Source: Candidatus Ancillula kalotermitis (GTDB taxonomy: Bacteria; Actinomycetota; Actinomycetes; Actinomycetales; Bifidobacteriaceae). Taken from it: a stretch of 53,631 nt of DNA. The stretch is taken from assembly GCA_031273495.1 (NCBI GenBank), contig JAISRT010000041.1, forward strand, positions 1 to 53,631. The letters are read 5' to 3'. The notes below the pieces were generated by a model that saw only the letters and a program-made list of their open reading frames with translations, made no database searches and was not told the DNA's origin. Positions 1,566-42,792 of the stretch are shown here, piece after piece; the stretch's first letter is position 1, and each line of letters starts with the position of its first letter. A program made the position numbers and the translations under genes.

Positions 1566-3156
1566 GAGCATAGCGATTGTAGGGATGCCGGCGAGTGGTA
1601 AGTCCAGAGTGGGTGTCGCACTTGCGGACTTGTTAAACTTTAGGCTTCTCGATCTAGACATGGCAATAGAAGAGGCGCAGGGCATGTCAATTAGCCAGAT
1701 ATTTCAGCGCCACGGCGAGGAACACTTCCGAAAGGTGGAAACTGCGCATCTGGAAGCCGCACTCAGCCAGAAAGGGTGTGTCATCTCGTTGGGCGGCGGT
1801 GTGCTTGAGTCGCGGGCAAACAGGAGTGCACTGCGCAAGTTTAGGGTAGCAGGTGGCTTGGTCGTGTATATAGAAACTGATGCAGAACTTGCAAAGTCAA
1901 GGATTTCCAAAAAGGACACTAGGCCCATTTTCGTGCAGAACGGGTTGGACTACTGGGATGTGTTGCTCAAGAGAAGGAGCAAGCATTTTATACAGAATGC
2001 CGACATCAGGATTAAGACATCGCTAGGCGGGGGGGAGTTCCTTGAGGCAGAAGTGGTAGCAGAAAAAATTTTTGCGCAACTTAATACTCGTCGAGTGTTG
2101 GTCGAGCGTGATAATGACATTAAGTATAGCATAACTATTGGCAGATGTTTAATCGAGCAGATTCCGACAAGGATTACACCCGACGCAAGTGTCGCTGTTT
2201 TGTACACCGAGTCCGTGGCAGACCATAAGAGCAGTGTCGTCGCCGAACTCAAAAAGCGAGGCCTCCGAGTGTCTGAATGTGTAGTGGCTGACGCCGAGAA
2301 CGGGAAGACCGTTGCAGAATATGAGCGCACGCTAGATTTTCTTGCCGAAAGAGGGTTCACGCGCTCTGACTTCATAATTGCAATTGGTGGCGGTGCACTG
2401 ACCGATATGGCTGGGTTAGTTGCCGCGAGTTTCTTGCGCGGCGTTCAATTCATCAATGTGCCGACGTCAACCCTGGCAGCAGTCGACGCGTCCACTGGTG
2501 GAAAAACGGGCATTAACCTCAGGGCGGGCAAAAACCTCTGCGGCGCGTTTTATGAACCTGAGGCTGTGTATATTGACCTCGACTTCTTCAAGACACTCCA
2601 CGCACGCGAGTTCAACGAGGGGCTTGGTGAGGCTCTCAAAATGGGACTACTATTTGATCAAGAACTGGTGGGATTGCTATTTGACGAGCACACTCGAAAC
2701 GCTAAGTTGGAGGAAATAGTCTACAGGTGTGTCAAGCTGAAGGCGGAAGTCGTTTCGAAAGACCTCTACGATTCGGGGCTCCGTGAGTTCCTTAATTACG
2801 GGCACACTTTCGCCCACGCGGTTGAAAAACTTGAACATTTTAAGATTCGCCACGGTGAAGCGGTAGCATTGGGCTGTATTTTCGCTGCACATTTGGCATT
2901 CAAGCTCGGTATGCTGACTGAAGACGACGTGAAATTGCATTATAGGCTAGTTAAAGCAGTGGGACTACCGTATTCTTGGGGGGCAGGTGTGTCCTTTGAC
3001 GACGTCTTGAACGCTATGCGGCTCGACAAGAAAAATAAGTCTGGAACACGACGATTTGTGCTACTAGATGGGCTACAGAACCCAAGGATTGTCGAGGATC
3101 CCGAACTGCACGCGATGAGTTACGCTTTCGAAATGGTCCAGCGTGCTATACTTTAG
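1549..3156 (+). CDS. aroB: Bifunctional shikimate kinase / 3-dehydroquinate synthase (AroK-AroB fusion)
   Basis: 535 aa. N-terminal P-loop IAIVGMPASGKS is shikimate-kinase-like. The C-terminal part has DHQS motifs (GGGALTDMAG, DASTGGKTGIN, HGEAVALG). Overlaps the GT2 stop by 17 nt. Confidence 0.85.
   Translation: MSMATESIAIVGMPASGKSRVGVALADLLNFRLLDLDMAIEEAQGMSISQIFQRHGEEHFRKVETAHLEAALSQKGCVISLGGGVLESRANRSALRKFRVAGGLVVYIETDAELAKSRISKKDTRPIFVQNGLDYWDVLLKRRSKHFIQNADIRIKTSLGGGEFLEAEVVAEKIFAQLNTRRVLVERDNDIKYSITIGRCLIEQIPTRITPDASVAVLYTESVADHKSSVVAELKKRGLRVSECVVADAENGKTVAEYERTLDFLAERGFTRSDFIIAIGGGALTDMAGLVAASFLRGVQFINVPTSTLAAVDASTGGKTGINLRAGKNLCGAFYEPEAVYIDLDFFKTLHAREFNEGLGEALKMGLLFDQELVGLLFDEHTRNAKLEEIVYRCVKLKAEVVSKDLYDSGLREFLNYGHTFAHAVEKLEHFKIRHGEAVALGCIFAAHLAFKLGMLTEDDVKLHYRLVKAVGLPYSWGAGVSFDDVLNAMRLDKKNKSGTRRFVLLDGLQNPRIVEDPELHAMSYAFEMVQRAIL
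3144..3152 (+). promoter_or_regulatory. Extended -10 box TGCTATACT inside the aroKB 3' end, ahead of leaderless mfd
   Basis: A 7-nt spacer is followed by ATG 3160. No SD. Confidence 0.6.
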
Positions 3157-7415: not shown

Positions 7416-7544
7416 TTGAACCAGGAAGCCGAAATACTCTTGAGCGTCATTCTCCAGGCAGTCTGGCAGTAAAAAGTCAAACGACTCCCCAAGATGAAGG
7501 GGAGCGCCGATAACTGAAACCTGTGCAACTGCCGTGATTTAACA

Positions 7545-7553
7545 ATTATAGCA
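7545..7553 (-). promoter_or_regulatory. Extended -10 box TGCTATAAT (minus strand) for priA
   Basis: The spacer TGTTAA contains the in-frame stop TAA. It is followed by ATC at 7538-7536, the first codon of the open PriA frame. Confidence 0.65.
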
Positions 7554-7569
7554 CCTCCGAACGAAAATG

Positions 7570-7578
7570 CGCTATACT
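7570..7578 (+). promoter_or_regulatory. -10 box CGCTATACT for tRNA-Arg (and dgt)
   Basis: TATACT ends 8 nt before the mature tRNA 5' end (7587). Sits back-to-back with the priA box 16 bp away. Confidence 0.6.
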
Positions 7579-7586
7579 AGAGATAT

Positions 7587-7659
7587 GCCCTCGTAGCTCA
7601 GTGGATAGAGTGACGGTTTCCGGTACCGCAGGTCGCAGGTTCGACTCCTGTCGAGGGCA
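7587..7659 (+). tRNA. tRNA-Arg (anticodon CCG)
   Basis: Hand-folded 73-nt cloverleaf: acceptor GCCCTCG/CGAGGGC, D arm GCTC..GAGT, anticodon loop TTCCGGT, T arm GCAGG-TTCGACT-CCTGT, discriminator A. CCA is not encoded. Confidence 0.85.
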
Positions 7660-7660
7660 C

Positions 7661-8911
7661 TTGTCGAAAATTGAGTATTACTCTGCAGCTGATGCAGCGC
7701 GTTTTTCTGGTAATGAAAAGCATAATTCTGAACGCACTGATTTTGCTAGGGACCGCGCGCGCATCGTCCATTCTTCAGCATTGCGACGGCTTGGCGCCAA
7801 GACTCAGGTTATGGTTGCAGGCTTCGATGACTTTGTGCGAACGCGCCTAACACACTCCCTTGAAGTCGCTCAAATCGGGCGTGATATAGCATCTAGCCTA
7901 GGCCTCAGCCAAGATGTAGTTGAAGCAGCGTGCCTTGCACACGACCTCGGACACCCACCGTTCGGGCATTTTGGTGAATCGCTACTGGATGAAGTTGCCA
8001 AAGATATAGGTGGGTTTGAAGGGAATGCGCAGACTTTCAGGATTCTCACGCGCCTGGAGCCCAAAATCTTCAACCAAGACGCTGTGCCTTCTGGGTTAAA
8101 CTTGACGCGCGCAACACTTGACGCAATTCTGAAGTATCCCTGGGGTGCAGGTGAACTCAAAGACGTGAAGAAGTTCAACTATTACAGGGATGACGCGCCT
8201 GTGTTTGATTGGGTCAGGCAATATACACCAGAGAACAAGGTGCGCAAGAAGTGCATTGAGGCGCAAGTGATGGATCTGGCGGACGATATTAGCTACGCAA
8301 CGCATGATGTTCAGGACGGACTAGTTTCAGGCGGTTTTGCTGGTAACACCCTAAAAGTGCTTGAAGACCGCGGGCGCTGGAATTATATGCTTGAAGTGGC
8401 AGCGCAATGGTTTGGGAACGAGTTTACCGGAATAGACTTCGACTCTGCGAGGTATCGGCTCAAGGGGCTTGGTGTTTTCGACCTGGAGTATACTGGCACC
8501 TATATTAGCGCGGCGAAGTTGAGCAACCATATTTCAACACTTATCGGGCGTTTCGTGTCGAGTGCGATTTTAGCGACGAAGAATTACGCAGAGTCACTGG
8601 AGCTCGACGGGAACTTGACGAGATATAATGCTGACCTTATTTTGCCTACTGAACAGCGTGATGAGATTAAGCTTTTGATGGCGTTTTCTGCCGCATTTGT
8701 CATGTTGCCCAAGCGCGAGGGGAGAGAAGAAAAGGATGAGGCTGACATAATCGAGCGCCTGGTCGAGCATTTTTCAGTAGAGGACAACTTGGAGCCACAG
8801 TTTCTTGAAGTAGCGCGGCGTGCCGAAAATAGTGCCGAAAAGTTGCGCAACGTTGTTGACCAGATAGCGTCTTTGACAGATTTTAGCGCTAGAAAGATCG
8901 CTGGAAGGTAA
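7661..8911 (+). CDS. dgt: dGTP triphosphohydrolase-like HD-domain protein
   Basis: HD motif (LTHSLEVAQIGR...AHDLGHPPFGH) and N-terminal FARDRARIVHSSALRRLGAKTQV. The tracked ORF (7601) begins inside the tRNA. The first in-frame start after the tRNA is TTG 7661. Confidence 0.8.
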   Translation: MSKIEYYSAADAARFSGNEKHNSERTDFARDRARIVHSSALRRLGAKTQVMVAGFDDFVRTRLTHSLEVAQIGRDIASSLGLSQDVVEAACLAHDLGHPPFGHFGESLLDEVAKDIGGFEGNAQTFRILTRLEPKIFNQDAVPSGLNLTRATLDAILKYPWGAGELKDVKKFNYYRDDAPVFDWVRQYTPENKVRKKCIEAQVMDLADDISYATHDVQDGLVSGGFAGNTLKVLEDRGRWNYMLEVAAQWFGNEFTGIDFDSARYRLKGLGVFDLEYTGTYISAAKLSNHISTLIGRFVSSAILATKNYAESLELDGNLTRYNADLILPTEQRDEIKLLMAFSAAFVMLPKREGREEKDEADIIERLVEHFSVEDNLEPQFLEVARRAENSAEKLRNVVDQIASLTDFSARKIAGR

Positions 8912-8915
8912 AACG

Positions 8916-8924
8916 TGCTACACT
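8916..8924 (+). promoter_or_regulatory. Extended -10 box TGCTACACT upstream of tRNA-Pro/MFS
   Basis: Followed by ACTGAT-ATT, the same initial transcribed sequence as at 26209 and 31280. The predicted TSS (~8931) is 101 nt before tRNA-Pro. Confidence 0.55.
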
Positions 8925-9031
8925 ACTGATATTGTGGTATACGGGTTTATGCTCGTAGACTGTTTTTACAACTAAATATACAATTCTACTATCGTCAAGT
9001 ATACTGGGTTTCTTGTGTGCAGGCGGTTTCA

Positions 9032-9105
9032 CGGGCATTAGCGCAGCTTGGTAGCGCGTTCGACTGGGGGTCGAGAGGTCGCAAGTTCAAATCTTGTATG
9101 CCCGA
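9032..9105 (+). tRNA. tRNA-Pro (anticodon GGG)
   Basis: Hand-folded 74-nt cloverleaf: acceptor CGGGCAT/ATGCCCG, D arm GCGC..GCGC, anticodon loop CTGGGGG, T arm GCAAG-TTCAAAT-CTTGT, discriminator A. CCA is not encoded. Confidence 0.85.
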
Positions 9106-9106
9106 C

Positions 9107-10420
9107 GTGAATTTGCGTAGATTTTTGCACTCAGTTCGGAACAAGCCTAATGGTGTTCTGTTGTTGAGCATTATACTGGTCGGACTGATTGCACGAGCAC
9201 CAACTTCGGTCTATGCACCAGTCGCGGCGTATCTTGAGCCACATTTCGGAGTTGACCACGCCACTTTCGGGTGGCTCTCAGGCATACCAGTCTTCTGTTT
9301 CGCGCTGTTCACTCCGTTGGCGTCACGTTTTATAGCGAAACGGGGCCTTGATGACGCGTTCTTGACTGGGATAATTATCACAACACTTGGCGTCGCACTG
9401 CGCCTCGTTGACAATTTTCTAGTCTTGTTCATCGCTACGATTATTATAGGTGCTGGGATAGCGTTTATGAACACTACGGTCCCACTAATGGCAGCGCGCT
9501 CATTCCCGAAGAAGTTCGCTATTGTGACTGGCACCTACTCGTCATTCTGCAACCTTGGCGTGGTGTTTGCGTTCTCGTTCACGGCACCTTTTGCTGATAT
9601 AATCGGGTGGCAGCTCTCAATGTTCATGTGGTTCTTTATGTGCGTCCTCAATATACTGGTTTTCGTAATATACATCTTCAGAAGGAAGCGCGGTAAGTCC
9701 CGCAAGCAGTTCAGGGTCGACGGGGAAGACTGGTCGCAAATCAAGAAACTGCGCCAGATTTCGAAGAAGGCAACTGAGTTTGATGCTGAGAGTTATGTTC
9801 AGCCCGCTGGAGTGTCCGAGACTGTTGAGGAAGCCCGTAACTCACGTCAAATCCACCGACAAGCGTTCACCTACGGAATATGCTTGCTCTTCATCTGTCA
9901 GTGTGTCGCGTATTTCACGTTCGCCGCCTGGTTGCCCAAGATTTTGCAAGACACTCTCAATATGGACGCTTCTACTGCGGGTATTGCGAGTTCAATGTTT
10001 CCACTAATGGGGATCTTCGGTTCGATTGCGGTGACACCATTTTTGAAGCGTGTTGGTGTGCTACCTTCATTCATAGGTATAGCACTCGGCTGGTTGATGT
10101 TGCCCCTCGGACTCCTCTTCCTACCAGAACTGTGGGCAGTATGGTGCGCCGCTGCAGGGATATGTCAAGCAGCGAATTATGTCACGATGTTCGACGCGAT
10201 AAAGAAGTGGTCCAAAACGAGTGAAGAGACTAGGAAATTATCGTCCGCTACGCAGGTTTCCGCGTATATCTGCGCTGGCATTTCGCCTTCGCTTTTCGGT
10301 GCGATTCACGATGCAACACTCCAGTGGCCGATTGTAATCAGTTTACTCGGTGTGACGCTCTTCATAATGCTCCTATCGGGATTCTTGACATATAGAACAA
10401 TAAAGGAGGGGCGGGGATGA
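9107..10420 (+). CDS. MFS transporter (about 12 TM segments)
   Basis: Hydrophobic multi-helix ORF with a central basic loop ([10 protein letters not shown]). The tracked ORF (9017) runs through tRNA-Pro. In-frame starts after the tRNA are GTG 9107 and TTG 9113. Confidence 0.75.
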
Positions 10421-11298
10421 CAGTAGTACTAAACGGTAAAGAACTGGCGGCGTTAACAAAGGCGGAGTTGAAGGAGCGTGTCGAAAAGCTGAAGGAGCAT
10501 GGCGTTGAAGTGGGGTTGGGAACTATTTTGGTGGGTGATGACCCTGGCAGCATTAAATACGTGGCAGGCAAGCATCAGGACTGTAAAGATGTGGGAATAA
10601 GTTCACTTCGCATCGACCTGCCGTCAACTGCGACCGAAGCCGAGATACTTGCCGCAGTTAAAAAGATGAATGACGACCCGAAATGCACAGCGTTTATCGT
10701 GCAGCTCCCGTTGCCAAAAGGTGTAGACCAAAATGCCGTGCTCGAAGCGATTTCACCCGAAAAAGACGCCGACGGGTTACACCCCTTCAATCTGGGTTCA
10801 TTAGTCCTGAATGTTAATGAGTCCTTGAAGACCGCGGTCCCTTGCACACCGTTCGGTATTATCAAGTTGATACAACACTATTTGGGTGAGGATTTTCTTG
10901 ATGGTAAACATGTTGTAGTCCTTGGGCGTGGCGTGACCGTTGGTCGGTCTATTGGGCTATTGTTGACGCGCAAATGTGTCAATGCCACCGTCACACTTTG
11001 TCACACTGGGACGCGGAATCTTGAAGAGCTGCTTAAAACTGCAGATGTCGTCGTTGCTGCAATGGGCAAGGCGCATTTCTTGCAGCCTGAGATGCTCAAA
11101 AGAGGTGTCGTGCTAGTCGATGTTGGCGTGTCCCGTGACTCACAGACCGGTAAAATTGCCGGTGACATCGACCCGCGGTGTTACACTGACCAAAATGCTG
11201 AGGCTGTGCTAGCGTATTCACCGAACCCAGGTGGTGTTGGACCGATGACCCGTGCGATGCTACTAGAGAACGTCGTCGCGCGCGGAGAGTTGATGTAG
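10417..11298 (+). CDS. folD: Methylenetetrahydrofolate dehydrogenase / methenyl-THF cyclohydrolase
   Basis: 293 aa with an FolD-typical sequence ([24 protein letters not shown]..., [14 protein letters not shown]). Overlaps the MFS stop by 4 nt. Confidence 0.9.
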
Positions 11299-12609: not shown

Positions 12610-13218
12610 ATGAGTAACGCGAAGGATGAAATCGGTTATCTAGATTTCGAGTTGCCAAAAGATATTGCAGTGCACACTGGCATTTCGGAAACTAAATCTG
12701 CGGCATTGGTGACTTCTATTAATGATATTGGCGTTCTAGCAGCACTTTGCGTGGTGAACGAAATTGAGGCAGTAATTATGCCTAGCGGTGTTTTCGGCAC
12801 AGTAGCATTTCTCCATGAGCTTAAAGATGGTGCACCCGAAAAAGCGGTCACAAAAATTACTCTAGCAGTCGATGGTCTTGACGCAGTTCTTGTTCAGTAT
12901 CGGTTCGAACGAATGGAGGCCAAACTGTATACAAAAGGTGAATTCGTTGAAGATTTGGTGCCCACTGTGGTTGTCGGCAATTTTTCTGAAGTCGCAGAAG
13001 ATGCTCTAATTGGCGAGATTGACCTCTACGACCTCATGAAAACTGGTAGTGCAAAGGTTGATGCCAACCACGCCTTGCGCAATCTGCCGTCTAACTTTGT
13101 GCCGAAGAAATATCAGCGCGGTGCGGAACGAACGTCAGGTAATTTCAACGCGTTCCCGACCTTCGCGATGCCAAAAGATGTCGCGCTCCAGACATTGAAG
13201 AGATTCGAGAATGTGTGA
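12610..13218 (+). CDS. Hypothetical acidic cytoplasmic protein
   Basis: 202-aa ORF with an AGGAGG SD 7 nt upstream. No motif I recognise. Its stop overlaps the GTG of the next gene. Confidence 0.6.
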   Translation: MSNAKDEIGYLDFELPKDIAVHTGISETKSAALVTSINDIGVLAALCVVNEIEAVIMPSGVFGTVAFLHELKDGAPEKAVTKITLAVDGLDAVLVQYRFERMEAKLYTKGEFVEDLVPTVVVGNFSEVAEDALIGEIDLYDLMKTGSAKVDANHALRNLPSNFVPKKYQRGAERTSGNFNAFPTFAMPKDVALQTLKRFENV

Positions 13219-14342
13219 ATAAGTTCTCTAAAATAGCATTGCCTCTCTTCGTCTTTGCGTTGGCGTTTTTGGGGATAGCAGTAGCAACTTTTGCAGTCTT
13301 GAGCACTCCGAACGAAGAAGAGAAACTTGAAATCCTAGTGCCTGACGGTATACCGCTTGCGAGTTTCGCTGGGTTTGCGCAGTCGGAGTCTGGTGTAGCT
13401 GCTACTCAACTGAAAGACGGCGTTTTTCCTTTTTCTGACGAGATGAACGCACTACTGGGGAAAAAGACTAGTTTGAGAATACTTAACGGTGCGGACCAAC
13501 TCTCGGCAGCGATGATAGACAAACCTAAAGCGGCAGTAGTTCCTTTGAGTATGGCGGCGCGGTTTTTCCACTCTGACGGCTATAAAATAATGCACATTGC
13601 GTCATTCGGGCTCAATGAGATTGTCGGGAACACTGAGGTTCAAGGTATGGGTGAGCTTGTCGGGAAAAAGGTCTACAGCTTCGCGAAAAATGACATCCCC
13701 GGTCTGGTTTTGCGTACTCTTATACGTGAGGACGGCGGTAAGGTCAATGAGTTGGCTGATGATAATGATGTCCTTGACCCGTCGGCAGTCAACATTCTTG
13801 AGTTTAATGATGCCCAGTCCGCAGGCGCCGCGAAGTTAAAAAGCCAGGATGCCGCAGATGTCTTCGCGTTTTTGCCTGAACCGGTGGCAACTAGTATTGC
13901 AGAGAAGTCCGATGGCAGCTTGAAGGTCACCGACCCGCAGCAGTTCTGGAAGCGTTTGTTTCACACCGACCAGCCCTACCCGCAGTCAGCATTAATAATC
14001 CGTAAAGACATCGCGGAAAGTGCTGGCTACGCTGAGACTTTTTCGGTTTTGTGCCTCGGAATGGGTTTGAGTAGTCAACTGGCATCTGAAGACGTCGACA
14101 AGCTCGTGGAGATTATGCGCGGTGACTTTAACTCGACATCATTTGCAAATGCGGGGGCAGTGAAGTTGGCGATACGTTCAGGACGCATTCCGCAGTCAGA
14201 CGGTTCAACACTGCGCCCCGAGATGAGAAGTAGTGTGCTCGCATTCCTAAAAACCTTGGCATTAACTAGCGAGCAGCCTGATAAAGTCCTAGGTGGTGAC
14301 GTGCCAGATGAGTCAATCTTCGCGGACCTACAGCAAAAGTAG
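13215..14342 (+). CDS. Putative membrane-anchored ABC substrate-binding protein (NMT1/THI5-like, tentative)
   Basis: 375 aa with an N-terminal TM anchor, then a periplasmic-binding-protein-like alpha/beta sequence. Family assignment rests on context with the downstream permease and is not verified. Confidence 0.55.
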   Translation: MNKFSKIALPLFVFALAFLGIAVATFAVLSTPNEEEKLEILVPDGIPLASFAGFAQSESGVAATQLKDGVFPFSDEMNALLGKKTSLRILNGADQLSAAMIDKPKAAVVPLSMAARFFHSDGYKIMHIASFGLNEIVGNTEVQGMGELVGKKVYSFAKNDIPGLVLRTLIREDGGKVNELADDNDVLDPSAVNILEFNDAQSAGAAKLKSQDAADVFAFLPEPVATSIAEKSDGSLKVTDPQQFWKRLFHTDQPYPQSALIIRKDIAESAGYAETFSVLCLGMGLSSQLASEDVDKLVEIMRGDFNSTSFANAGAVKLAIRSGRIPQSDGSTLRPEMRSSVLAFLKTLALTSEQPDKVLGGDVPDESIFADLQQK

Positions 14343-15443: not shown

Positions 15444-15452
15444 TGCTACACT
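15444..15452 (+). promoter_or_regulatory. Extended -10 box TGCTACACT, leaderless fhaA
   Basis: Spacer ATGTGA, then ATG 15459. Confidence 0.7.
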
Positions 15453-26190: not shown

Positions 26191-27648
26191 GTGCGAATGT
26201 GCTACAATACTGATATTAAGGTTGAGGCTTACGAGCTAGCATTGGGCAACGTTGACGCGTTGGATGTTTTTTTGCGTCTCCGAAGTGTTGATTCGCATTG
26301 CTTTATATTGGAGTCTCTTGAGGGCGCACACTGGAGTTTTATCGGCTGGTACCCCATTCTCGAAATCACACTCCGCAATGGACATTTCTTGCAGAAGAAC
26401 TTAAAGAGTGGCGTGATGGAAGTTGACATTCAGACTGACGCACCCAAACAGTTGCTCCAACAAGTGCTTGACGATTTTCACTGCACGCCATCTGATCTGG
26501 AAAGTTTAACAAATATCTCCGAGCTCCCTCCGTTCACGGGCGGTCTGATGGGGTATTTTAGCTACGACTATATTAAGTATGCCGAGCCGACTTTGCGGCC
26601 ATTTTTCGAGCGGATGAAGGACACTGAGCGGTTTAATGACTTCGACTTGATGCTGTTTAACAATGTTATCGCGATTAACAACAACACGCAGAAGATGGTG
26701 ATTATCCACAACTCGTATGATGACACACCGTTCGATTATAAGCAGGTCTACAATACTGTGACATCTGCCCCGAAGTATAGTATGCAGGCATTAGAGATTC
26801 TTGAGGACCCCGATTTCATGTTCAACGAGCAGCAGTGGGGTGAAATTGTAGACAAAGCGCAGGAGCACATACAGCAAGGCGACATCTTCCAGGTAGTGCT
26901 CTCGAATCGGATGCAAGCGCGCGCTGAGGGAACACTTTTTGATGCCTACCGCGAGATGCGCGCCAAGAATCCGTCACCTTATATGTTTTACCTCAACTCT
27001 GACGAGCTCGAGATTGCGGGGTGCTCTCCGGAAACGCTGACGTCTTTGAGGCGTGACGGGCGTGAGGGGAACATGGTGGCTCGGACATTCCCACTTGCGG
27101 GGACGAGGCCACGCGGAGCGACCGCAGAAGAGGATGCACGTATTGAAGAGGAGTTGTTGAGCGACGAGAAAGAGCGTGCTGAGCACAATATGTTGGTTGA
27201 CTTGGGGCGTAATGACATCGGCAGAATTAGTAAAATCGGGTCAGTTGAGGTCGAGGACTATATGTCAGTATCAAGGTTTTCACATGTCATGCACATTGGC
27301 TCGAAGGTGAAGGGCATTCTTGAGGACGGACTTTCGGCACTTGACGTTATTGAGTCAGTTTTGCCCGCTGGAACACTCTCTGGTGCACCCAAAATCCGCG
27401 CTTGTGAGATTATTGACTGCCTGGAAGGCGACAGTCGCGGGATTTACGGTGGGTGTCTCGGTTATCTTGGTCTGGACGGTCAGATGGATATGTGTATAAC
27501 AATTCGGACAATCTACAAAAAGGGTGGCTATGTCTACGCGAGAAGTGGTGCCGGCATCGTTATGGATTCTAACGCGCGTTCAGAATACGTCGAGACAATC
27601 AATAAGATTAAGTCAAGCACTTTGGCTCTCGGGTTGGTGGTCAAATGA
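26191..27648 (+). CDS. Chorismate-utilising enzyme, anthranilate/aminodeoxychorismate synthase component I (TrpE/PabB family)
   Basis: 485 aa with motifs GDIFQVVLS, SPSPYMFY, GTLSGAPK and GGCLGY. The start is uncertain: GTG 26191 and ATG 26197 overlap the promoter box at 26200-26208. ATT 26215 or TTG 26242 are more plausible. Confidence 0.8.
   Translation: MRMCYNTDIKVEAYELALGNVDALDVFLRLRSVDSHCFILESLEGAHWSFIGWYPILEITLRNGHFLQKNLKSGVMEVDIQTDAPKQLLQQVLDDFHCTPSDLESLTNISELPPFTGGLMGYFSYDYIKYAEPTLRPFFERMKDTERFNDFDLMLFNNVIAINNNTQKMVIIHNSYDDTPFDYKQVYNTVTSAPKYSMQALEILEDPDFMFNEQQWGEIVDKAQEHIQQGDIFQVVLSNRMQARAEGTLFDAYREMRAKNPSPYMFYLNSDELEIAGCSPETLTSLRRDGREGNMVARTFPLAGTRPRGATAEEDARIEEELLSDEKERAEHNMLVDLGRNDIGRISKIGSVEVEDYMSVSRFSHVMHIGSKVKGILEDGLSALDVIESVLPAGTLSGAPKIRACEIIDCLEGDSRGIYGGCLGYLGLDGQMDMCITIRTIYKKGGYVYARSGAGIVMDSNARSEYVETINKIKSSTLALGLVVK
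26200..26208 (+). promoter_or_regulatory. Extended -10 box TGCTACAAT for the trpE/pabB-like gene
   Basis: Spacer ACTGAT, then in-frame ATT 26215. Confidence 0.6.
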
Positions 27649-28220: not shown

Positions 28221-28263
28221 AAAATAGAAACATAGCGCAAATGCTAAAAAAATGCGTACGGAG

Positions 28264-28272
28264 TGCTATACT
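28264..28272 (+). promoter_or_regulatory. Extended -10 box TGCTATACT, leaderless ftsZ
   Basis: Spacer AGTGCT, then ATG 28279. Confidence 0.7.
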
Positions 28273-29674: not shown

Positions 29675-30736
29675 ATGAGCAGTTTACTTTACAATCCGAA
29701 CTTGACATACCTCGAGAATTTTGCTCAAGGGCCGTTTGATATGCACGGAATTGCTGACACCACGGGAGTTTCACTACCATTCGGCATCCCCGCAGGTCCA
29801 CTTCTGCACAGTCGGCACTGTATCGAAGCATTTAAGGCAGGGTTTGACATCTGCGTCTACAAAACTGTCCGCAATCAGCAACACCCGTGTAACGATTTCC
29901 CCAACGTGATGTTTGTGCACCCCGATGCCGAGGACATTTCGTTTGCGCAGGCGGATGCAGGTATACTCACTGATTTCGATATGCCACATATAATCAAGAA
30001 TGTTAACATTTCCAACTCGTTCGGCGTTCCATCAATGTCACCTGATTTTTGGCAGGAGGATATGCGCAAGGCAAACGATGCTGCAGGAGAGAACCAACTC
30101 TTAATCGGTAGTTTTCAAGGGAGTGGCACTGTTCAGAGTTTCGTTGACGCTGCGAAAATGGTCACTGAAACTGGCGTGAAAGTGCTAGAGATGAACACGA
30201 GCTGCCCGAATGAGGGTAAGGATAACTTGCTCTGCTTCGATCCGCAGAAGGTGGGGGAGATTGCCGAGGCGGTCAAAAATGCGATTGGTGATCTAGAGTT
30301 ACACATTAAGATAGCGTATATGCGCAAGTGCGGGACTGAGGAGATTGACGAGGCACTGCTTGACGAGTTGTTGAGGACCACTGTTGAGCGAGGTACTGTC
30401 CAGGGGATCGCTGCGATTAACACTATACCTTCGAGATTGGTCAACGCTAGTGGGGGCGACGCACTGACCGGCGGACGGTCTACTTCTGGGGTGTGCGGAG
30501 GTGGCATAAAGTGGGCAGGGCTAAAAATGGTTGAGGCACTTGACTCGCGACGTGACAGACTTAGGGAGCGGGGTGTAGACTTCTCGATCACAGGGGTCGG
30601 TGGGGTTGCTGATTTCGCGGACTACACTGAGTACCGGGGTGCTGGTGCAGATAGCGTGCTCGCTGCGACTGTGCCCATGTTTAACCCGCGCATGGCAATC
30701 GAGGTGAAAAAACAGGCGCTACTCGCTACGCTGTAA
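29675..30736 (+). CDS. Dihydroorotate-dehydrogenase-like flavin TIM-barrel oxidoreductase
   Basis: 353 aa with class-1 DHODH-like motifs (NISNSFG, LEMNTSCPN, ITGVGGV). Exact substrate unknown. The last 6 codons plus stop coincide with a repeat-element terminus. Confidence 0.65.
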   Translation: MSSLLYNPNLTYLENFAQGPFDMHGIADTTGVSLPFGIPAGPLLHSRHCIEAFKAGFDICVYKTVRNQQHPCNDFPNVMFVHPDAEDISFAQADAGILTDFDMPHIIKNVNISNSFGVPSMSPDFWQEDMRKANDAAGENQLLIGSFQGSGTVQSFVDAAKMVTETGVKVLEMNTSCPNEGKDNLLCFDPQKVGEIAEAVKNAIGDLELHIKIAYMRKCGTEEIDEALLDELLRTTVERGTVQGIAAINTIPSRLVNASGGDALTGGRSTSGVCGGGIKWAGLKMVEALDSRRDRLRERGVDFSITGVGGVADFADYTEYRGAGADSVLAATVPMFNPRMAIEVKKQALLATL

Positions 30737-30780
30737 GATTAGCTCAGTTGTTGTTACTTCTGTAGTGGGCGATACTGGAC
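30718..30780. repeat. 63-bp exact direct repeat, copy 1 (copy 2 at 30960-31022)
   Basis: Covers the last 19 nt of the DHODH-like CDS, 29 nt of spacer and the 3' 15 nt of tRNA-Val. Confidence 0.95.
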
Positions 30781-30864
30781 AGGGGAGACCTTGGCAACTT
30801 GTTGCCTAGTTCGGAGCGTGGACCAGCGACCTCCTGCGTGTCGAGCAGGTGCTCTAACCAACTG
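30766..30864 (-). pseudogene. tRNA-Val pseudogene fragment (5' acceptor/D-stem missing, 41-nt replacement in the T-loop)
   Basis: 30822-30864 is identical to 31027-31069 (D-loop to T-stem), and 30766-30780 is identical to 31008-31022 (3' end). The T-loop nucleotides are replaced by 30781-30821, which contains the palindrome GGCAAC-TT-GTTGCC. Confidence 0.8.
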
Positions 30865-30865
30865 T

Positions 30866-30975
30866 CGTTACATTTCGCTTCGCTCTTTTCTTACCTCGCC
30901 TCGCTTGCGCGTCGGCTCGAGCACACTCCGCTCGTTTACGCCGCCGAATGAATCGGACGGCTACTCGCTACGCTG
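30866..30975 (-). repeat. Element T copy 1 (~110-nt dispersed element ending in CAGCGTAGCGAGTAG on the minus strand)
   Basis: Shares CACACTCC-N-CTC...CCGAAT(G/A)AATCGGACG(G/C)CTA(C/T)TCGCTACGCTG and GC-rich CGCTC blocks with 41993-42105. Confidence 0.75.
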
Positions 30976-31022
30976 TAAGATTAGCTCAGTTGTTGTTACT
31001 TCTGTAGTGGGCGATACTGGAC
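30960..31022. repeat. 63-bp exact direct repeat, copy 2
   Basis: Identical to 30718-30780 by direct comparison. Confidence 0.95.
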
Positions 31023-31081
31023 TTGAACCAGCGACCTCCTGCGTGTCGAGCAGGTGCTCTAACCAACTGAGCTAACCGCCC
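31008..31081 (-). tRNA. tRNA-Val (anticodon GAC)
   Basis: Hand-folded 74-nt cloverleaf: acceptor GGGCGGT/ATCGCCC, D arm GCTC-AGTTGGTTA-GAGC, anticodon stem CCTGC/GCAGG with loop TCGACAC, T arm GCTGG-TTCAAGT-CCAGT. CCA is not encoded. C occupies the position that is usually U33. Confidence 0.8.
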
Positions 31082-31270: not shown

Positions 31271-31279
31271 TGCTATAAT
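31271..31279 (+). promoter_or_regulatory. Extended -10 box TGCTATAAT for fusA (leadered)
   Basis: Followed by ACTGAT-ATA. A ~47-nt leader with AAAGGAAAA precedes ATG 31333. Confidence 0.65.
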
Positions 31280-31332
31280 ACTGATATACGGGGCGCTCTA
31301 CGCGTTGACTCTATCTTATTGAAAGGAAAAAC

Positions 31333-35256: not shown

Positions 35257-35284
35257 ATTTAGGTCCTTTCTGTCTAATGTCAGT

Positions 35285-35293
35285 AGTATAGCA
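35285..35293 (-). promoter_or_regulatory. Extended -10 box TGCTATACT (minus strand) for glnA (22-nt leader)
   Basis: Spacer ACTGAC, then a leader ATTAGACAGAAAGGACCTAAAT before ATG 35256. Confidence 0.65.
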
Positions 35294-35509: not shown

Positions 35510-35518
35510 TGCTACAAT
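35510..35518 (+). promoter_or_regulatory. Extended -10 box TGCTACAAT, leaderless rluB
   Basis: Spacer ATATGC, then ATG 35525. Confidence 0.7.
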
Positions 35519-36325: not shown

Positions 36326-37794
36326 ACAATAATAACGCGGTAATTGCAAACGAGCTGAAATTAAAGCGCACTCTGAAGGCTAGACACCTCAATATGATCG
36401 CGCTCGGCGGCTCAATAGGGACTGGACTGTTCTTGGCGTCAGGTGGATCAATCGCTCAAGCTGGACCGGGTGGGGCACTTTTAGCCTACACTCTAATTGG
36501 CGTTATGGTCTACTTCTTAATGACTTCACTAGGCGAGATGTCCACGAATATGCCGACGTCTGGCTCGTTTTCCGAATATGCGAAGCGGTATTTCGACAAG
36601 TCGCTCGGATTTGCGTCAGGCTGGAACTACTGGTTTAATTGGGCAATCACACTAGCGTCCGAGCTGGCTGCAGCGGCCGTGATAATGAAATTCTGGTTCC
36701 CTGACGTGCCGGGCTGGATTTTTAGCCTACTGTTCTTGTTCATCATCTTGGCGTTAAACATCATCTCTGTCCGTGGGTTTGGGGAGTCCGAATACGTCTT
36801 CTCATCGATAAAAGTCGTCACGGTTATAGTGTTCATAATCGTCGGTGCTGGAATAATACTGGGGCTCTGGGGTGGCGAAGGGCACACTGTTGGCTTCGAG
36901 AACTGGTTTATAGGCGATGCGCCCTTCCATGACGGTGTTCTGGGGGTCCTTGCGATAATGATGATTGCGGGGTATTCATTTCAAGGCACTGAACTACTGG
37001 GAGTTGCCGCAGGTGAGACTGACGACCCGAAGAAGAATGTGCCCAAAGCAGTCCGTCAAATATTCTGGCGCATAGTGTTGTTCTATATGCTCTCAATATT
37101 CGTGATTGGCACCCTAATACCATACACTAATGAGAACCTTAGCCTTGAAGATGTCGCGGTGTCGCCCTACACATTAGTCTTCTCGCAAATTGGCATCCCT
37201 GCTGCGGCGTCAGTCCTGAACGCAGTGATCCTAATCGCGGTGCTCTCTGCGGGGAACTCCGGTACTTATGCCTCAACTAGAATGCTGTTTGCGCTGGCGG
37301 AGCAGGGTGAAGCGCCCAAAGTGTTCAGTCAGGTGTCCAAGAACGGAGTCCCTGTTCCCGCGCTGCTGCTCACTATTGCGGTCGGCGGTGCTAGTTGTCT
37401 GAGCTCAATAGTTGGGGACGGCGAAATGTATAACCTACTGCTCAACATTTCGGCGCTGGCAGGGTTCATTACGTGGTTTATCATCGCACTGAGCCATTAT
37501 CGGTTCCGCAAAGCCTTCATTAAGCAGGGTAAAAGCCTGGACGATCTGCCATTCAAAGCCAAGTTCTTCCCAGTCGGTCAGCTCCTCGCACTGTTTCTCT
37601 GTGGGTTCGTCATCATCGGGCAAGGTTTTTCGGCATTTTCTGATACAGGCGTGGATTGGAACGCGCTACTTTCGACATATATTGGCGTCCCAGTATTCTT
37701 CGTAGTCTACTTTGCCCACAAGTTTAAGCATAAAACTCGGCTTGTGCGGCTTGAAGAAATGGATCTCGACGGGATCGATAACATACTCAAGTAA
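36322..37794 (+). CDS. APC-family amino acid permease
   Basis: 490 aa, about 12 TM segments. N-terminal LKRTLKARHLNMIALGGSIGTGLF is typical of amino-acid permeases. Overlaps the rluB stop by 4 nt. Confidence 0.85.
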   Translation: MNNNNAVIANELKLKRTLKARHLNMIALGGSIGTGLFLASGGSIAQAGPGGALLAYTLIGVMVYFLMTSLGEMSTNMPTSGSFSEYAKRYFDKSLGFASGWNYWFNWAITLASELAAAAVIMKFWFPDVPGWIFSLLFLFIILALNIISVRGFGESEYVFSSIKVVTVIVFIIVGAGIILGLWGGEGHTVGFENWFIGDAPFHDGVLGVLAIMMIAGYSFQGTELLGVAAGETDDPKKNVPKAVRQIFWRIVLFYMLSIFVIGTLIPYTNENLSLEDVAVSPYTLVFSQIGIPAAASVLNAVILIAVLSAGNSGTYASTRMLFALAEQGEAPKVFSQVSKNGVPVPALLLTIAVGGASCLSSIVGDGEMYNLLLNISALAGFITWFIIALSHYRFRKAFIKQGKSLDDLPFKAKFFPVGQLLALFLCGFVIIGQGFSAFSDTGVDWNALLSTYIGVPVFFVVYFAHKFKHKTRLVRLEEMDLDGIDNILK

Positions 37795-37798
37795 AAAG

Positions 37799-37807
37799 TG
37801 CTATACT
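37799..37807 (+). promoter_or_regulatory. Extended -10 box TGCTATACT, leaderless lipoprotein gene
   Basis: Spacer ATTGCA, then ATG 37814. Confidence 0.7.
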
Positions 37808-37813
37808 ATTGCA

Positions 37814-38809
37814 ATGACCCAAGAACGATTTTTCACGCGCTCTAATAAAGCCGTTTGTGGTATATGTGCCGCAGTATGTATTTTGCTGACTTTAACGCTT
37901 TCGAGCTGTATTGACTATTCCGCAAAGGACACCGAAAAAGTGGAGTCGAATTCAAATGTGCTACCCAGTCTAAAAGTTGAGTTTGACGGCAAGAATGAGC
38001 CTAAAGTGGAATATGATGCTACTGCCACGATTCCAGTTGAAGTGATTGATGAAAATGCTGACGTCGCTCGGAATGTCTCAAAAGTGGTCAGCCATGGTGA
38101 AGGCACAATCCAGAATGGGCAGACTGTCGCGCTAGAATATTTGTATTATTCGATGCCGGGGTTCTCTAAACAGTTTTCAACTTGGGACGAGGGCGCGAAG
38201 GTGCAGAAGTTGACGGTCAATAAAGATGACCAGGACTCAAATTCACTCTCAAAGTTGCTGTTAGGGCTTGGGAAAGGTGCTATCGTTGCGGTTGCCACTC
38301 CAGGATTTGATATGCAGACCCAGAAACTTGACCTATCTGGCACCAACTACACTGTGCAGATACTCATTGTCGACGACTTCAAGAATCCAACCACGAAAGC
38401 GGAGGGCACACCTGTCGATGATGCCTCATTAGATCCCAAGTTGCCTAAAGTCACGCTCGCTACGGACGGGACACCTTCGATTAAAATACCTTCTAGCTTC
38501 ATTATGCCATCTTCGAGTGTGAGTGAACAGCTTAAAAAGGGCGCAGGGCCGAAGTTGGACAAGGTTTCAAACATCTCGTTCGCGTATTCGGCATTTGACG
38601 CAGACACTTCGGAGTTGATTCAGTCCACTTGGGACACGAAAATACCGTTGACTGCGACGCTAGGGCAGACCAATATGGCGTGGCAGACTGCGCTTGAGCA
38701 CGCATCAGTCGGCGATCAGTATTTAATTATTGTGCCAAAAGGGGGTGAAAACAGCACTTCGAAGGACTTGAACCTGATCTTTGTTGTCGATGTGCTTGAT
38801 GAAATCTAG
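37814..38809 (+). CDS. Lipoprotein with two degenerate FKBP-like repeats (tentative)
   Basis: Signal peptide with lipobox LTLSSC. Two similar halves resemble FKBP-type PPIase folds, but I cannot confirm the catalytic residues. ATG 37814 lies 6 nt after TGCTATACT. Confidence 0.6.
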   Translation: MTQERFFTRSNKAVCGICAAVCILLTLTLSSCIDYSAKDTEKVESNSNVLPSLKVEFDGKNEPKVEYDATATIPVEVIDENADVARNVSKVVSHGEGTIQNGQTVALEYLYYSMPGFSKQFSTWDEGAKVQKLTVNKDDQDSNSLSKLLLGLGKGAIVAVATPGFDMQTQKLDLSGTNYTVQILIVDDFKNPTTKAEGTPVDDASLDPKLPKVTLATDGTPSIKIPSSFIMPSSSVSEQLKKGAGPKLDKVSNISFAYSAFDADTSELIQSTWDTKIPLTATLGQTNMAWQTALEHASVGDQYLIIVPKGGENSTSKDLNLIFVVDVLDEI

Positions 38810-39831
38810 TGTTAAGTAAAATTATTTCTGGTGTGCTTGTAATCGCGGGGTTACTTGTCATGATTTTTGCCATAACGTTCTCCAATAACGAATCGGCAAC
38901 TCAGAATATAGTTAAGGCGGAGCTAGCAATCGATAAGGCATCACCAACTATTGTGATTACTGACACTGGTGTGCTTGAAGCGATGAATCCATCAATCTCT
39001 GCTGTAGTTTCAACAGACTTCGCGGCGTCACTAAATGTTGCGGTCGGTGCATCGTATGACGTCAACGCCTGGATAGAGCAGGTCAATACTATCAATATTA
39101 CGGGGATTTCACCGCAGGGTAAACTTCTGCTCCAAAATAGGGACAACTTAAGAGACGAAGTTCGCGGTACATCCTATTTGTCGGACATCTGGAATTTTCA
39201 GAACACCCAGAAGAACGAGGCAAAAGTAGACTGGGTAAGGCCGAATGACAATAACTACTCGATAATATTTGTGATCACCCCTGACGACACTGCATTTCAA
39301 AGTGGAACTGCTACGATCACGTTCAGCTGGTTAAATAAAAGCAATAGTGCATTTCTGGTGACTGGAGTTGTGATCTCTATCTTCCTATTCGTCTCGGCGT
39401 TATTGCTAGTTGTGTTGAGGCGACGCCAGAATAAAAACGGTTCACATTTCGGGGACGTTAAGCGACTGAAAGATATTGTGGTCACCAAAAACAAGTTCTC
39501 ACTGCCACAGACTGAGCAGATTCAATCGGTGAAAGACTTCATGCAGAACGAGAAAAGTGCAGGCACTAACTCATCTTCACTTCTAACGACGGCAACACTT
39601 GGGCAGAAGCACACTGCGTCCTATTTCACATCAGTCCTCGACGGCAACACTGAGCAGAATGCAACCCCAGAAAGTAACGCGTTCCAGAGCAACAGCCTTC
39701 CTATTGACTCAGCGTCCTTGAGCTTTAAGACTTCGAGACTCATTGTTGAAGATGAGAATAAGACAACCCGAAAGCAACTGCGAAAACGGAAAGACGGTAG
39801 TAGTTCAAAATGGAGAAAGGGACGCAAATGA
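38809..39831 (+). CDS. Hypothetical bitopic membrane protein
   Basis: 340 aa: N-terminal TM anchor, ~170-aa outside domain, second TM (FLVTGVVISIFLFVSALLLVVL), then a Ser/Thr/Asn-rich basic tail. GTG start overlaps the upstream stop. Confidence 0.55.
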   Translation: MLSKIISGVLVIAGLLVMIFAITFSNNESATQNIVKAELAIDKASPTIVITDTGVLEAMNPSISAVVSTDFAASLNVAVGASYDVNAWIEQVNTINITGISPQGKLLLQNRDNLRDEVRGTSYLSDIWNFQNTQKNEAKVDWVRPNDNNYSIIFVITPDDTAFQSGTATITFSWLNKSNSAFLVTGVVISIFLFVSALLLVVLRRRQNKNGSHFGDVKRLKDIVVTKNKFSLPQTEQIQSVKDFMQNEKSAGTNSSSLLTTATLGQKHTASYFTSVLDGNTEQNATPESNAFQSNSLPIDSASLSFKTSRLIVEDENKTTRKQLRKRKDGSSSKWRKGRK

Positions 39832-40850
39832 AGAAGTTTTGCCTACTGTCAGCACTTTGCCTGGTTTTGAGCCTCAGTGTGCCCTTTGGTCTGAGTAGTT
39901 GTGGGTCTGACGAGAGCGCGATTAATGACACTAAAGTGAAGGGAACTGAGAGCGGTGGTGAAAAGAATGTTCCAGTCCTTCAAGTCGAGCAGATTACGCC
40001 AATACTCAGTAAAATAGTTGCCAAGATTGATGAGGCTGCCGCGCAGAAAAACCTCAACCTATTAGATGAGCGCGTCCAAGGGGCGGAAAAGCCTTTGATG
40101 ACGACAAAACTGCGTATTAACGCTAACGACCTGCAAGTTATCCCCTCGATTAAGCAGTATATAGTAACTAACACTAAGTCATGGCCGAGAACGATATTCC
40201 TGATTGGTGAAGATGCATCGACTAAATTGGCGAATAAGCTATATGTGCTCCAGCAGAATAATGTGCGCGATAATTATAAGGTCTCCGCTAGTGTTACACT
40301 TTTTGACTCACAACAACTTCCCAAGTTCGACGTCCCGAATCAGGGGAGCGCTAATGTTAAACTGACCGAAACGGGGTATGAGTCTTCAATCCCGGACATA
40401 TTGACTAAATACTCTGACCTGTTAAGCAACGGGACCGACTCACATTATGCAAACGACTTCGCGATAGACCAGCTCCAGACGCAGATTCGCTCGGCGCATC
40501 AAATTGCCAACGATCAGCTGTCACAGCTTGGGGGGCAACAATCCGAAGTCTTTAACTTTGTGCCCGAAACATTTTCCGCACTGAAAACTTATGATGGTGG
40601 CGCGCTCTGCGTGGCGGAGTTCAAGTCAACTTGGGTGCGCAGTCTGCCAGGGAATTTCTACGCGACGACAGCTACTGAGGCGGAGAAAACACTCTTCGGG
40701 GACAGCCAACGGGGGCACACTATTGAAGCGGACTATATCACTGAAGTTCTAATGTATATCCCCAAGAAAGTGGACAACGCGAAGAATGCGTCAAGTTCAC
40801 TAAAAGTCTTCGGTGCAGAGCGCTTTCCTGTTGAAGTCCGTTCGCGCTAA
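39828..40850 (+). CDS. Hypothetical lipoprotein
   Basis: MKKFCLLSALCLVLSLSVPFGLSSC is a signal peptide plus lipobox. GAGAAAGGGA SD precedes ATG 39828. Overlaps the upstream stop by 4 nt. Confidence 0.65.
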   Translation: MKKFCLLSALCLVLSLSVPFGLSSCGSDESAINDTKVKGTESGGEKNVPVLQVEQITPILSKIVAKIDEAAAQKNLNLLDERVQGAEKPLMTTKLRINANDLQVIPSIKQYIVTNTKSWPRTIFLIGEDASTKLANKLYVLQQNNVRDNYKVSASVTLFDSQQLPKFDVPNQGSANVKLTETGYESSIPDILTKYSDLLSNGTDSHYANDFAIDQLQTQIRSAHQIANDQLSQLGGQQSEVFNFVPETFSALKTYDGGALCVAEFKSTWVRSLPGNFYATTATEAEKTLFGDSQRGHTIEADYITEVLMYIPKKVDNAKNASSSLKVFGAERFPVEVRSR

Positions 40851-42783: not shown

Positions 42784-42792
42784 AGTATAGCA
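42784..42792 (-). promoter_or_regulatory. Extended -10 box TGCTATACT (minus strand), leaderless tmk
   Basis: Spacer AGTGGA, then ATG at 42777-42775. Confidence 0.7.

Follow-up and report, generated by a model that had tools for sequence, protein, structure and literature searches.

A tRNA-Arg gene abuts the start codon of dgt, the gene for a dGTP triphosphohydrolase (dGTPase), on a 53,631-nucleotide (nt) contig of Candidatus Ancillula kalotermitis (GCA_031273495.1, contig JAISRT010000041.1, positions 1 to 53,631; here called the window), with a single C between the tRNA discriminator base and an in-frame TTG. The reading we favor, while giving it slightly less than an even chance, is that the tRNA heads the transcription unit and that its 3' maturation at this C, tRNA position 74 (C74), would leave a dgt message with a leader of 0–1 nt. 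Such a message would be translated in leaderless fashion, weakly so for a UUG codon, and the same would probably hold for the message of a downstream major facilitator superfamily (MFS) transporter gene and folD.

A tRNA-Arg gene abuts the dgt start codon

The tRNA-Arg gene, with anticodon CCG, scores 61.4 bits against Rfam RF00005 (gathering score 29), covers model positions 1–71 of 71 and carries one A-C mismatch, at pair 27:43. ARAGORN sets its end at 7660 (7587–7660) and so includes the C at position 74. A first-pass annotation of this DNA had described the order of discriminator A7659, C7660 and TTG 7661–7663 in frame with the dGTPase-like open reading frame (ORF); Rfam, ARAGORN and an ORF of 416 residues bear this out. 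It had also stated that CCA is not encoded, and indeed only C74 is present in the gene.

Judged by its sequence, the ORF is a true dGTPase. The product scores 470 bits against NCBIfam NF002829, the actinobacterial equivalog model (PRK03007), for which the cut-off is 385; Pfam HD and HD_assoc both match, and the protein keeps all the columns that do not vary among 24 homologues. Residues 4–414 align to profile positions 7–414, and because residue 4 falls at position 7 the N-terminus that starts from the TTG is of normal length, as had been claimed.

The conserved N-terminal block of the protein (Y-x3-D-x2-R-[FW]...F-x-RDRAR) begins at about 7679, and no ATG, GTG or TTG occurs in the dgt frame between 7664 and this block. 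The start is thus limited to TTG 7661, to GTG 7601 or GTG 7610, both inside the tRNA gene, and to ATT 7670, a non-canonical codon. No stop codon interrupts the frame as far back as 7601, and ATT does initiate with a Shine-Dalgarno (SD) sequence in mycobacteria (PMC4633059). Use of any of these three codons is nevertheless highly improbable, since the 17–20 extra residues encoded from the GTGs match no homologue, the family profile begins about three residues before the TTG, and the ATT would lie 13 nt from the SD-like GAGG of the tRNA acceptor strand. The NCBI and JGI/IMG annotations agree on the 416-residue version that starts with TTG.

Promoter elements and probable co-transcription of the tRNA with dgt

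The window holds 28 copies of the extended −10 element TGCTAYAMT, versus 1.5 expected from shuffled sequences, and this element appears to be the main promoter element of this organism, without an obvious −35 element. TGCTAYAMT-N6-ATG is found seven times (0.02 expected), and one further copy stands 7 nt before its ATG; examples of these elements lie at 3144–3152, 15444–15452, 28264–28272, 35510–35518, 42784–42792 (minus strand) and 43483–43491. With seven of the 28 copies exactly 6 nt before an ATG, translation of leaderless mRNAs is clearly predicted to be routine in this organism. The operon-internal genes of the window carry GGAG or GGAGG 3–8 nt 5' of the start.

Upstream of tRNA-Arg the hexamer is TATACT, the commonest within the TGCTAYAMT class. 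Applying the hexamer-to-+1 spacing of the leaderless genes, 6–7 nt, the transcription start site (TSS) is predicted at about 7585–7587, which would give a pre-tRNA leader of 0–2 nt. A candidate from a generic sigma-70 scan, TTAACA-18-GAAAAT (7539–7568), was dropped in favor of the organism-specific extended −10 class.

Between tRNA-Arg and dgt there is neither a terminator nor a promoter-sized spacer; TANNNT is absent from tRNA-Arg between 7612 and 7660, and no consensus TGCTAYAMT is found inside tRNA-Arg or tRNA-Pro. These absences, together with a TATACT of the dominant class upstream, make co-transcription of tRNA-Arg and dgt very likely on sequence grounds, where no other reading is as economical, and they support the earlier view that no separate promoter lies between the two genes. 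The proposal of a single transcript from the box at 7570–7578 stands insofar as TATACT at 7573–7578 belongs to the dominant −10 class; the release of the message by cutting is a step that we infer.

The only −10-like hexamer inside tRNA-Arg is the weak TAGAGT at 7606–7611, in the D arm. A promoter at this site would yield a dgt mRNA with a leader of ~43 nt that lacks the acceptor 5' strand and leaves GAGG unpaired, and TAGAGT does fit the loose TANNNT rule of actinobacteria (PMC6448022). We nonetheless consider this explanation very unlikely: TAGAGT is a near-universal D-arm motif, has no TGC and has two mismatches to TAYAMT, the one class that is enriched in the window. Moreover, T residues occupy the predicted +1, the predicted fold of 7619–7720 pairs the GAGGG region again, and tRNA-Pro contains no TANNNT at all.

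C74 as a candidate processing site

In each of the three tRNA genes of the window the discriminator is followed by C, but CCA is not encoded. Among 65 non-redundant actinobacterial tRNA genes (62 from loci L004–L159 plus the three of the window), 20 encode CCA and C74 is present in 45/45 of the others, which are mostly tRNA-Asn orthologues with about nine other independent cases, tRNAs for Gly, Pro, Met and Arg included. This regularity marks the C as a conserved part of the gene or of a processing site and not as spacer. It is consistent with the preference of mycobacterial RNase E for C at +1, or with retention of a partial CCA.

In M. smegmatis, C occupies +1 in >90% of mapped cleavage sites (PMC6448022), and purified mycobacterial RNase E cleaves RN/CNU (the slash marks the cut) to leave 5'-monophosphate C ends (PMC10641625). 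The tRNA-Pro junction, GA/CGU, fits this pattern exactly and the tRNA-Arg junction, CA/CUU, fits it except at position −2. In P. acnes, tRNA 3' ends arise by endonucleolytic cuts, some of which separate the two Cs where CCA is encoded; an RNase Z homologue was not found (PMC3848588). A cut 5' of C74 would give the 1-nt leader proposed in the first-pass annotation; a cut 3' of it would give a truly leaderless message beginning with UUG, or with GUG at the second junction.

We propose that transcription would start 0–2 nt before tRNA-Arg, from the TATACT box, in which case the tRNA would constitute essentially the whole 5' untranslated region (UTR) of dgt. RNase P would trim the tRNA 5' end, and an endonuclease would cut at C74, either on its 5' side, as expected of a C-preferring actinobacterial RNase E, or on its 3' side, as in the cuts between the Cs in P. 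acnes. The freed tRNA would be completed by the CCA-adding enzyme. The dgt mRNA, left with a 5'-monophosphate and a leader of 1 or 0 nt, would then be translated in leaderless fashion, probably at a low level because of its UUG start; in the predicted fold of this RNA the first 13 nt are unpaired. The tRNA-Pro–MFS–folD unit may follow the same route from GUG 9107. In its general form, the proposal is that tRNA genes would serve here as punctuation of the mitochondrial kind, for dgt as for MFS-folD, with one cut at C74 both finishing the tRNA and making the mRNA, and with the tRNA in place of a leader and ribosome-binding site; this generalization we put forward only tentatively, as possible but somewhat doubtful.

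A second junction between tRNA-Pro and an MFS gene

GTG 9107 directly follows C9106 of tRNA-Pro and is in frame with the MFS ORF, for which TTG 9113 and TTG 9125 are further candidate starts. We estimate the chance of an in-frame GTG exactly at tRNA-Pro position 75 at ~2% (1/3 for the frame times ~5% for a start codon), and in mycobacteria GTG initiates leaderless messages efficiently. The earlier claim that this pair has the same A-C-start geometry as the first holds for A9105-C9106-GTG9107 but depends on the use of GTG 9107 over ATG 9098, TTG 9113 and TTG 9125. The family profiles begin only at MFS residues 9–18, which leaves the start undecided by them.

The MFS product belongs to the MFS_1 superfamily (126 bits versus 33) and scores 139.9 bits against TIGR00896, below the cut-off of 406 for CynX/NimT, so that it can be named CynX-like only. 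Its ORF overlaps folD by 4 nt, and the SD of folD, GGAGG, lies inside the MFS 3' end. The MFS-folD pair is also found in termite-gut relatives (L167 5001–7086 and L168 906–3070). The nearest MFS homologue is leaderless (TATAAT-N6-ATG, L168 894–908), which indicates that the MFS gene is of a kind needing no SD. The first 9 nt of this homologue, ATGTCCGAT, and the corresponding 9 nt of the window, ATGCCCGAC, which form the tRNA-Pro 3' end, are alike at 7/9 bases; this likeness hints at a microhomology-mediated fusion of a tRNA end with a gene start.

Alternatives to the proposed release of the message by tRNA maturation

Several observations weigh against the release of a leaderless dgt message at C74. 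All eight leaderless genes of the window start with ATG (8/8), and the TTG of dgt departs from the 5'-terminal AUG or GUG of actinobacterial leaderless mRNAs. In mycobacteria, ATG or GTG at +1 is both required and sufficient for leaderless initiation; TTG is ineffective there and is active with an SD (PMC4633059). UUG begins only 3% of the leaderless mRNAs of P. acnes (PMC3848588). A 1-nt leader and a 5'-monophosphate could also lower the translation and stability of the dgt message, and if 3' maturation were of the E. coli type, with a downstream cut followed by exonucleolytic trimming, the cut would fall within the dgt coding sequence. At the second junction, both public annotations (NCBI and JGI) start the MFS gene at ATG 9098 inside the tRNA, and in the alignment the M-P-D encoded from this ATG stands opposite M-S-D in the nearest homologue, P0122; the true MFS start may be this codon within tRNA-Pro. 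Two further objections, an SD-like element in the tRNA and the absence of the arrangement from relatives, belong to the two alternatives that follow.

The tRNA itself supplies an SD-like element. GAGG at 7653–7656, in the acceptor 3' strand CGAGGGC, ends 4 nt 5' of TTG 7661, a distance within the 3–8 nt range of the SD-led genes of the window, and the statement in the first-pass annotation that there is no SD between the two genes was therefore wrong. This suggests a leadered mode of dgt translation in which the acceptor GAGG(G) would be the ribosome-binding site on transcripts whose acceptor stem is unformed: unprocessed or misfolded precursors, or RNAs without the tRNA 5' half. Maturation of the tRNA and translation of dgt would then be alternative fates of each transcript. 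The dependence of mycobacterial TTG on an SD and the exclusive use of ATG by the leaderless genes of the window both favor this possibility. In the predicted precursor fold, however, GAGGG is paired within the 7-bp acceptor stem, which would restrict its action to unfolded or 5'-truncated molecules, and the tRNA would already be folded by the time the polymerase releases the start codon. Since acceptor strands are often G-rich, the motif may be incidental, and at tRNA-Pro none of the MFS starts has an SD within 25 nt. On balance we regard translation from the acceptor strand as unlikely.

To place the arrangement among related genomes we sampled 80 dgt loci from GTDB genomes, 80 from metagenomes and the contigs of the nearest homologues (L001/2, L083–85, L169/170); the comparison loci amount to 1.4 Mb and hold 72 actinobacterial tRNA genes outside the window. 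Across about 165 related dgt loci no tRNA lies 5' of dgt, with 0/160 in the actinobacterial dgt loci and none in the Ancillula-like loci, and a tRNA is found 5' of the MFS gene in 0/3 homologue loci (only three homologues, of 45–49% identity). The tRNA-dgt arrangement is lineage-specific: no related dgt or MFS locus in the sample shares it, which leaves no basis for a claim of selection. The closest dgt proteins come from Candidatus Ancillula metagenome-assembled genomes and termite-gut metagenomes and are only 53–55% identical, followed by homologues from Micrococcales, Actinomycetales and Bifidobacteriaceae; no relative closer than 55% identity was present in the GTDB genomes, metagenomes and homologue contigs searched, and the sequence clusters hold no further copies than those of this contig at NCBI and JGI. 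With relatives at ≤55% identity and none with a tRNA, conservation of the arrangement is neither shown nor refuted. The usual context in the sampled loci is dgt-dnaG-tRNA-Asn, or an operon with 1-nt overlaps; in the relatives, dgt either overlaps the preceding gene by 1 nt and has dnaG downstream or has an SD-bearing leader.

These comparisons bear on a further alternative, that the juxtaposition is a neutral by-product of genome reduction or rearrangement with no dedicated mechanism. Maturation of the tRNA 3' end would then mostly inactivate the message, and dgt and the MFS gene, the latter from ATG 9098, would be weakly expressed from read-through or unprocessed RNA. Ancillula-like bacteria are endosymbionts of termite-gut flagellates with reduced genomes (PMC11707648), and the window itself (G+C ~49%) is tightly packed, with many ORFs that overlap or abut, as are the Ancillula-like relatives. 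The lineage-specificity of the arrangement, the loss of the usual dgt neighbor dnaG, and the MFS start inside the tRNA in both annotations, with its M-P-D/M-S-D alignment, all fit neutral compaction. So does what directly follows tRNA-Arg: an AU-rich stretch at 7667–7681 and then, at 7683–7706, a weak hairpin (CTGCA...TGCAG) followed by CGCGTTTTTC. This hairpin may be a partial terminator or attenuator that ends most transcripts after the tRNA, or a by-product of the conserved AADAARFS coding. Against neutral compaction, dgt retains every invariant residue and exceeds the equivalog cut-off, the MFS-folD pair is conserved and the MFS gene needs transcription through the tRNA, and an in-frame start stands exactly after C74 at two independent junctions. 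We consider it, too, an improbable explanation.

In the Ancillula-like relatives, dgt and the gene before it share 1 nt (L083 4001, L084 4001, L169 714, L170 689); in L083 this upstream neighbor is a truB/ribF/Sua5-like fusion, and in L084 it encodes an RNase T-like exonuclease. A second 1-nt overlap, between dgt and dnaG, is found in L083, L169 and L170. Such overlaps show how compact these genomes are.

Spacing between tRNA and protein genes elsewhere in the phylum

Among the 72 tRNA genes outside the window, the closest verified coding sequence (CDS) start lies ~17 nt from a tRNA end; two of the three tRNAs of the window abut a real ORF. Apparent zero-spacer hits proved spurious: in L099 and L115 a terminator hairpin comes after the TTG that adjoins CCA, and in loci such as L154 an SD precedes the real ATG, which lies 17–20 nt downstream. 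A protein gene follows tRNA-Asn at about 17–28 nt in streamlined actinobacteria of freshwater and marine habitats (L068, L151, L154, L156, L157 and L159; L134, L146, L148, L155, L049 and L067). In six of these tRNA-Asn loci the downstream gene encodes an azlC-like membrane protein, and the spacer holds an SD-like motif and would not fit a promoter. Spacers this short imply that tRNA-mRNA co-transcripts are ordinary in the phylum and that the tRNA-Arg/dgt junction represents the zero-spacer extreme. What is special at this junction is that the spacer, and the SD with it, is gone. A literature search found no bacterial precedent for tRNA excision making a leaderless mRNA, which is not proof of absence.

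Comparison with known systems

In mitochondrial tRNA punctuation (the model of Ojala, Montoya and Attardi), RNase P and RNase Z excise tRNAs and thereby release leaderless mRNAs. The two junctions of the window, A7659-C7660-TTG7661 and A9105-C9106-GTG9107, have the spacing of 0 to a few nt typical of that system. As in mitochondria, the tRNA abuts the coding sequence with a spacer of 0–1 nt, two tRNA-CDS modules appear in a row in one unit (tRNA-Arg-dgt-tRNA-Pro-MFS-folD), and the released mRNA would begin at or next to the start codon with a 5'-monophosphate. Unlike the mitochondrial case, the window is part of a free bacterial genome, which has numerous promoters of its own, its messages would be punctuated on the 5' side only, and the candidate nuclease may be a C-preferring RNase E and not RNase Z.

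Bacterial tRNA-mRNA operons are exemplified by thrU-tyrU-glyT-thrT-tufB and metY-rimP-nusA-infB of E. coli. As in these operons and in the actinobacterial tRNA-Asn–azlC-like pairs, tRNA-Arg would head a same-strand unit that runs into a protein gene with no evident terminator or promoter between. The azlC-like pairs, however, have an SD-bearing spacer of ~17–20 nt and the spacers of the E. coli operons are longer, whereas the window has a single C and no SD downstream of the tRNA. An SD-bearing spacer of the tufB or metY-nusA type is thus lacking: the spacer is 1 nt and the SD-like element lies inside the tRNA only.

The leaderless mRNAs of Mycobacterium and P. acnes (PMC4633059, PMC6448022, PMC3848588) have their counterpart in the eight window genes with a −10 box 6–7 nt before the ATG, and the dgt and MFS messages would likewise be without an SD-bearing leader. 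A canonical leaderless mRNA is a primary transcript that carries a 5'-triphosphate and starts with A/GUG, whereas the ends considered here would arise by processing, and the (C)UUG of dgt would be of a kind inactive in the mycobacterial reporter. In T. kodakarensis, a tRNA-Lys lies within the 159-nt 5' UTR of TK0306 (PMC4247193). There, as would hold for tRNA-Arg, the tRNA is transcribed within the leader of a protein gene, but the organism is an archaeon and the UTR extends beyond the tRNA. The nearest analogues of the arrangement are mitochondrial tRNA punctuation and this archaeal tRNA in a 5' UTR.

Other features of the window

Coordinates are collected in Table 1. Rfam finds three tRNAs and no other match in the whole window. 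Site-specific insertion at tRNA-Arg is unsupported, as no att-like direct repeats flank dgt; the repeats near dgt are T-arm similarities among tRNAs only. The third tRNA, tRNA-Val(GAC) at 31081–31008 on the minus strand, is followed by a broken second copy (region 30718–31081). The partial repeats comprise 46 nt of the D and anticodon arms (30819–30864, 98%) and 63 nt of the 3' part of the T arm, the acceptor strand and the trailer (30718–30780, 100%), with ~38 nt inserted in the T arm of the second copy. It looks like an att-type duplication or a remnant of integration or rearrangement at a tRNA.

The promoter positions imply that several longest-ORF calls are too long. ftsZ most likely starts at ATG 28279 and not at 28252, the ORF at 37712–38809 at ATG 37814, and the starts of glnA (minus strand, hexamer 35290–35285) and trpE (promoter 26200–26208) must lie 3' of the longest-ORF starts. 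At four promoters ACTGAYAT directly follows the −10 hexamer (4 versus 0.1 expected): 8919–8932, 26203–26216, 31274–31287 and 35277–35290 (minus strand), which precede tRNA-Pro, trpE, fusA (EF-G) and glnA, respectively. It may be a shared discriminator, an element of the initial transcribed region or a regulator site. Five ORFs in consecutive pairs (202, 375, 331, 340 and 346 residues; 12610–14342 and 37814–40850) have no Pfam match at E≤1e-8 and are placed among housekeeping genes.

Table 1. Features of the window discussed in the text, in order of position
Feature	Position	Strand	Basis or remark
Leaderless mfd-like gene, ATG	3160		Defined by TGCTAYAMT promoter
−10 hexamer TATACT, predicted tRNA-Arg/dgt promoter	7573..7578	+	Hexamer of TGCTAYAMT class; context gcgcTATACT
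tRNA-Arg, anticodon CCG, 73 nt	7587..7659	+	Rfam RF00005 61.4 bits; ARAGORN
SD-like GAGGG, acceptor 3' strand of tRNA-Arg	7653..7657	+	Sequence; paired in predicted precursor fold
C at tRNA position 74, partial CCA and likely processing-site nucleotide	7660	+	C74 in 45/45 CCA-less actinobacterial tRNA genes
dgt, dGTP triphosphohydrolase, 416 aa, start TTG 7661–7663	7661..8911	+	NF002829 470 bits; alignment; NCBI and JGI start
Weak 5-bp hairpin and T-run, 22 nt into dgt	7683..7706	+	Terminator-like match; seen in predicted fold
Full-consensus promoter TGCTACACT + ACTGATAT	8916..8932	+	5 nt 3' of dgt stop; TSS predicted at ~8931, toward tRNA-Pro
Second −10-like TATACT, without TGC	9000..9005	+	26 nt 5' of tRNA-Pro
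tRNA-Pro, anticodon GGG, discriminator A9105, then C74 at 9106	9032..9105	+	Rfam 60.4 bits; ARAGORN 9032–9106
ATG in MFS frame, first three bases of tRNA-Pro acceptor 3' strand	9098..9100	+	NCBI and JGI start, 440 aa
CynX/NimT-like MFS transporter ORF, 437 aa from GTG 9107	9107..10420	+	Pfam MFS_1 126 bits
folD, last gene of tRNA-Pro unit, SD-led	10417..11298	+	NF010789 405 bits versus cut-off 401
Leaderless fhaA, ATG	15459		Defined by TGCTAYAMT promoter
Leaderless ftsZ, ATG	28279		Defined by TGCTAYAMT promoter
Leaderless pseudouridine synthase gene, ATG	35525		Defined by TGCTAYAMT promoter
Leaderless ORF, ATG	37814		Defined by TGCTAYAMT promoter
Leaderless tmk, ATG	42777	−	Defined by TGCTAYAMT promoter
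Leaderless cmk, ATG	42822		Defined by TGCTAYAMT promoter
Leaderless 878-aa ORF, ATG	43498		Defined by TGCTAYAMT promoter

Implications

Expression of dgt punctuated by a tRNA is plausible from what the sequence offers. If the juxtaposition reflects neutral compaction alone, the locus is a curiosity, an illustration of how disorderly a reduced genome can be while its genes are still expressed. It also bears on annotation, where abutments and overlaps of tRNA and CDS are usually handled as start-codon errors, and it provides a concrete test bed for the maturation of CCA-less tRNAs in actinobacteria. If release at C74 is correct, leaderless mRNAs made by excision of a tRNA would be known from bacteria for the first time, and the C74 rule of CCA-less actinobacterial tRNA genes would be linked to a C-specific RNase E. 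Should the released RNA be translated, tRNA excision, so far regarded as organellar, would make leaderless messages in bacteria as well, and leaderless initiation would work on processed 5'-monophosphate ends, possibly even on UUG. A compact genome could then dispense with a gene's own promoter, leader and SD once that gene is docked on a tRNA.

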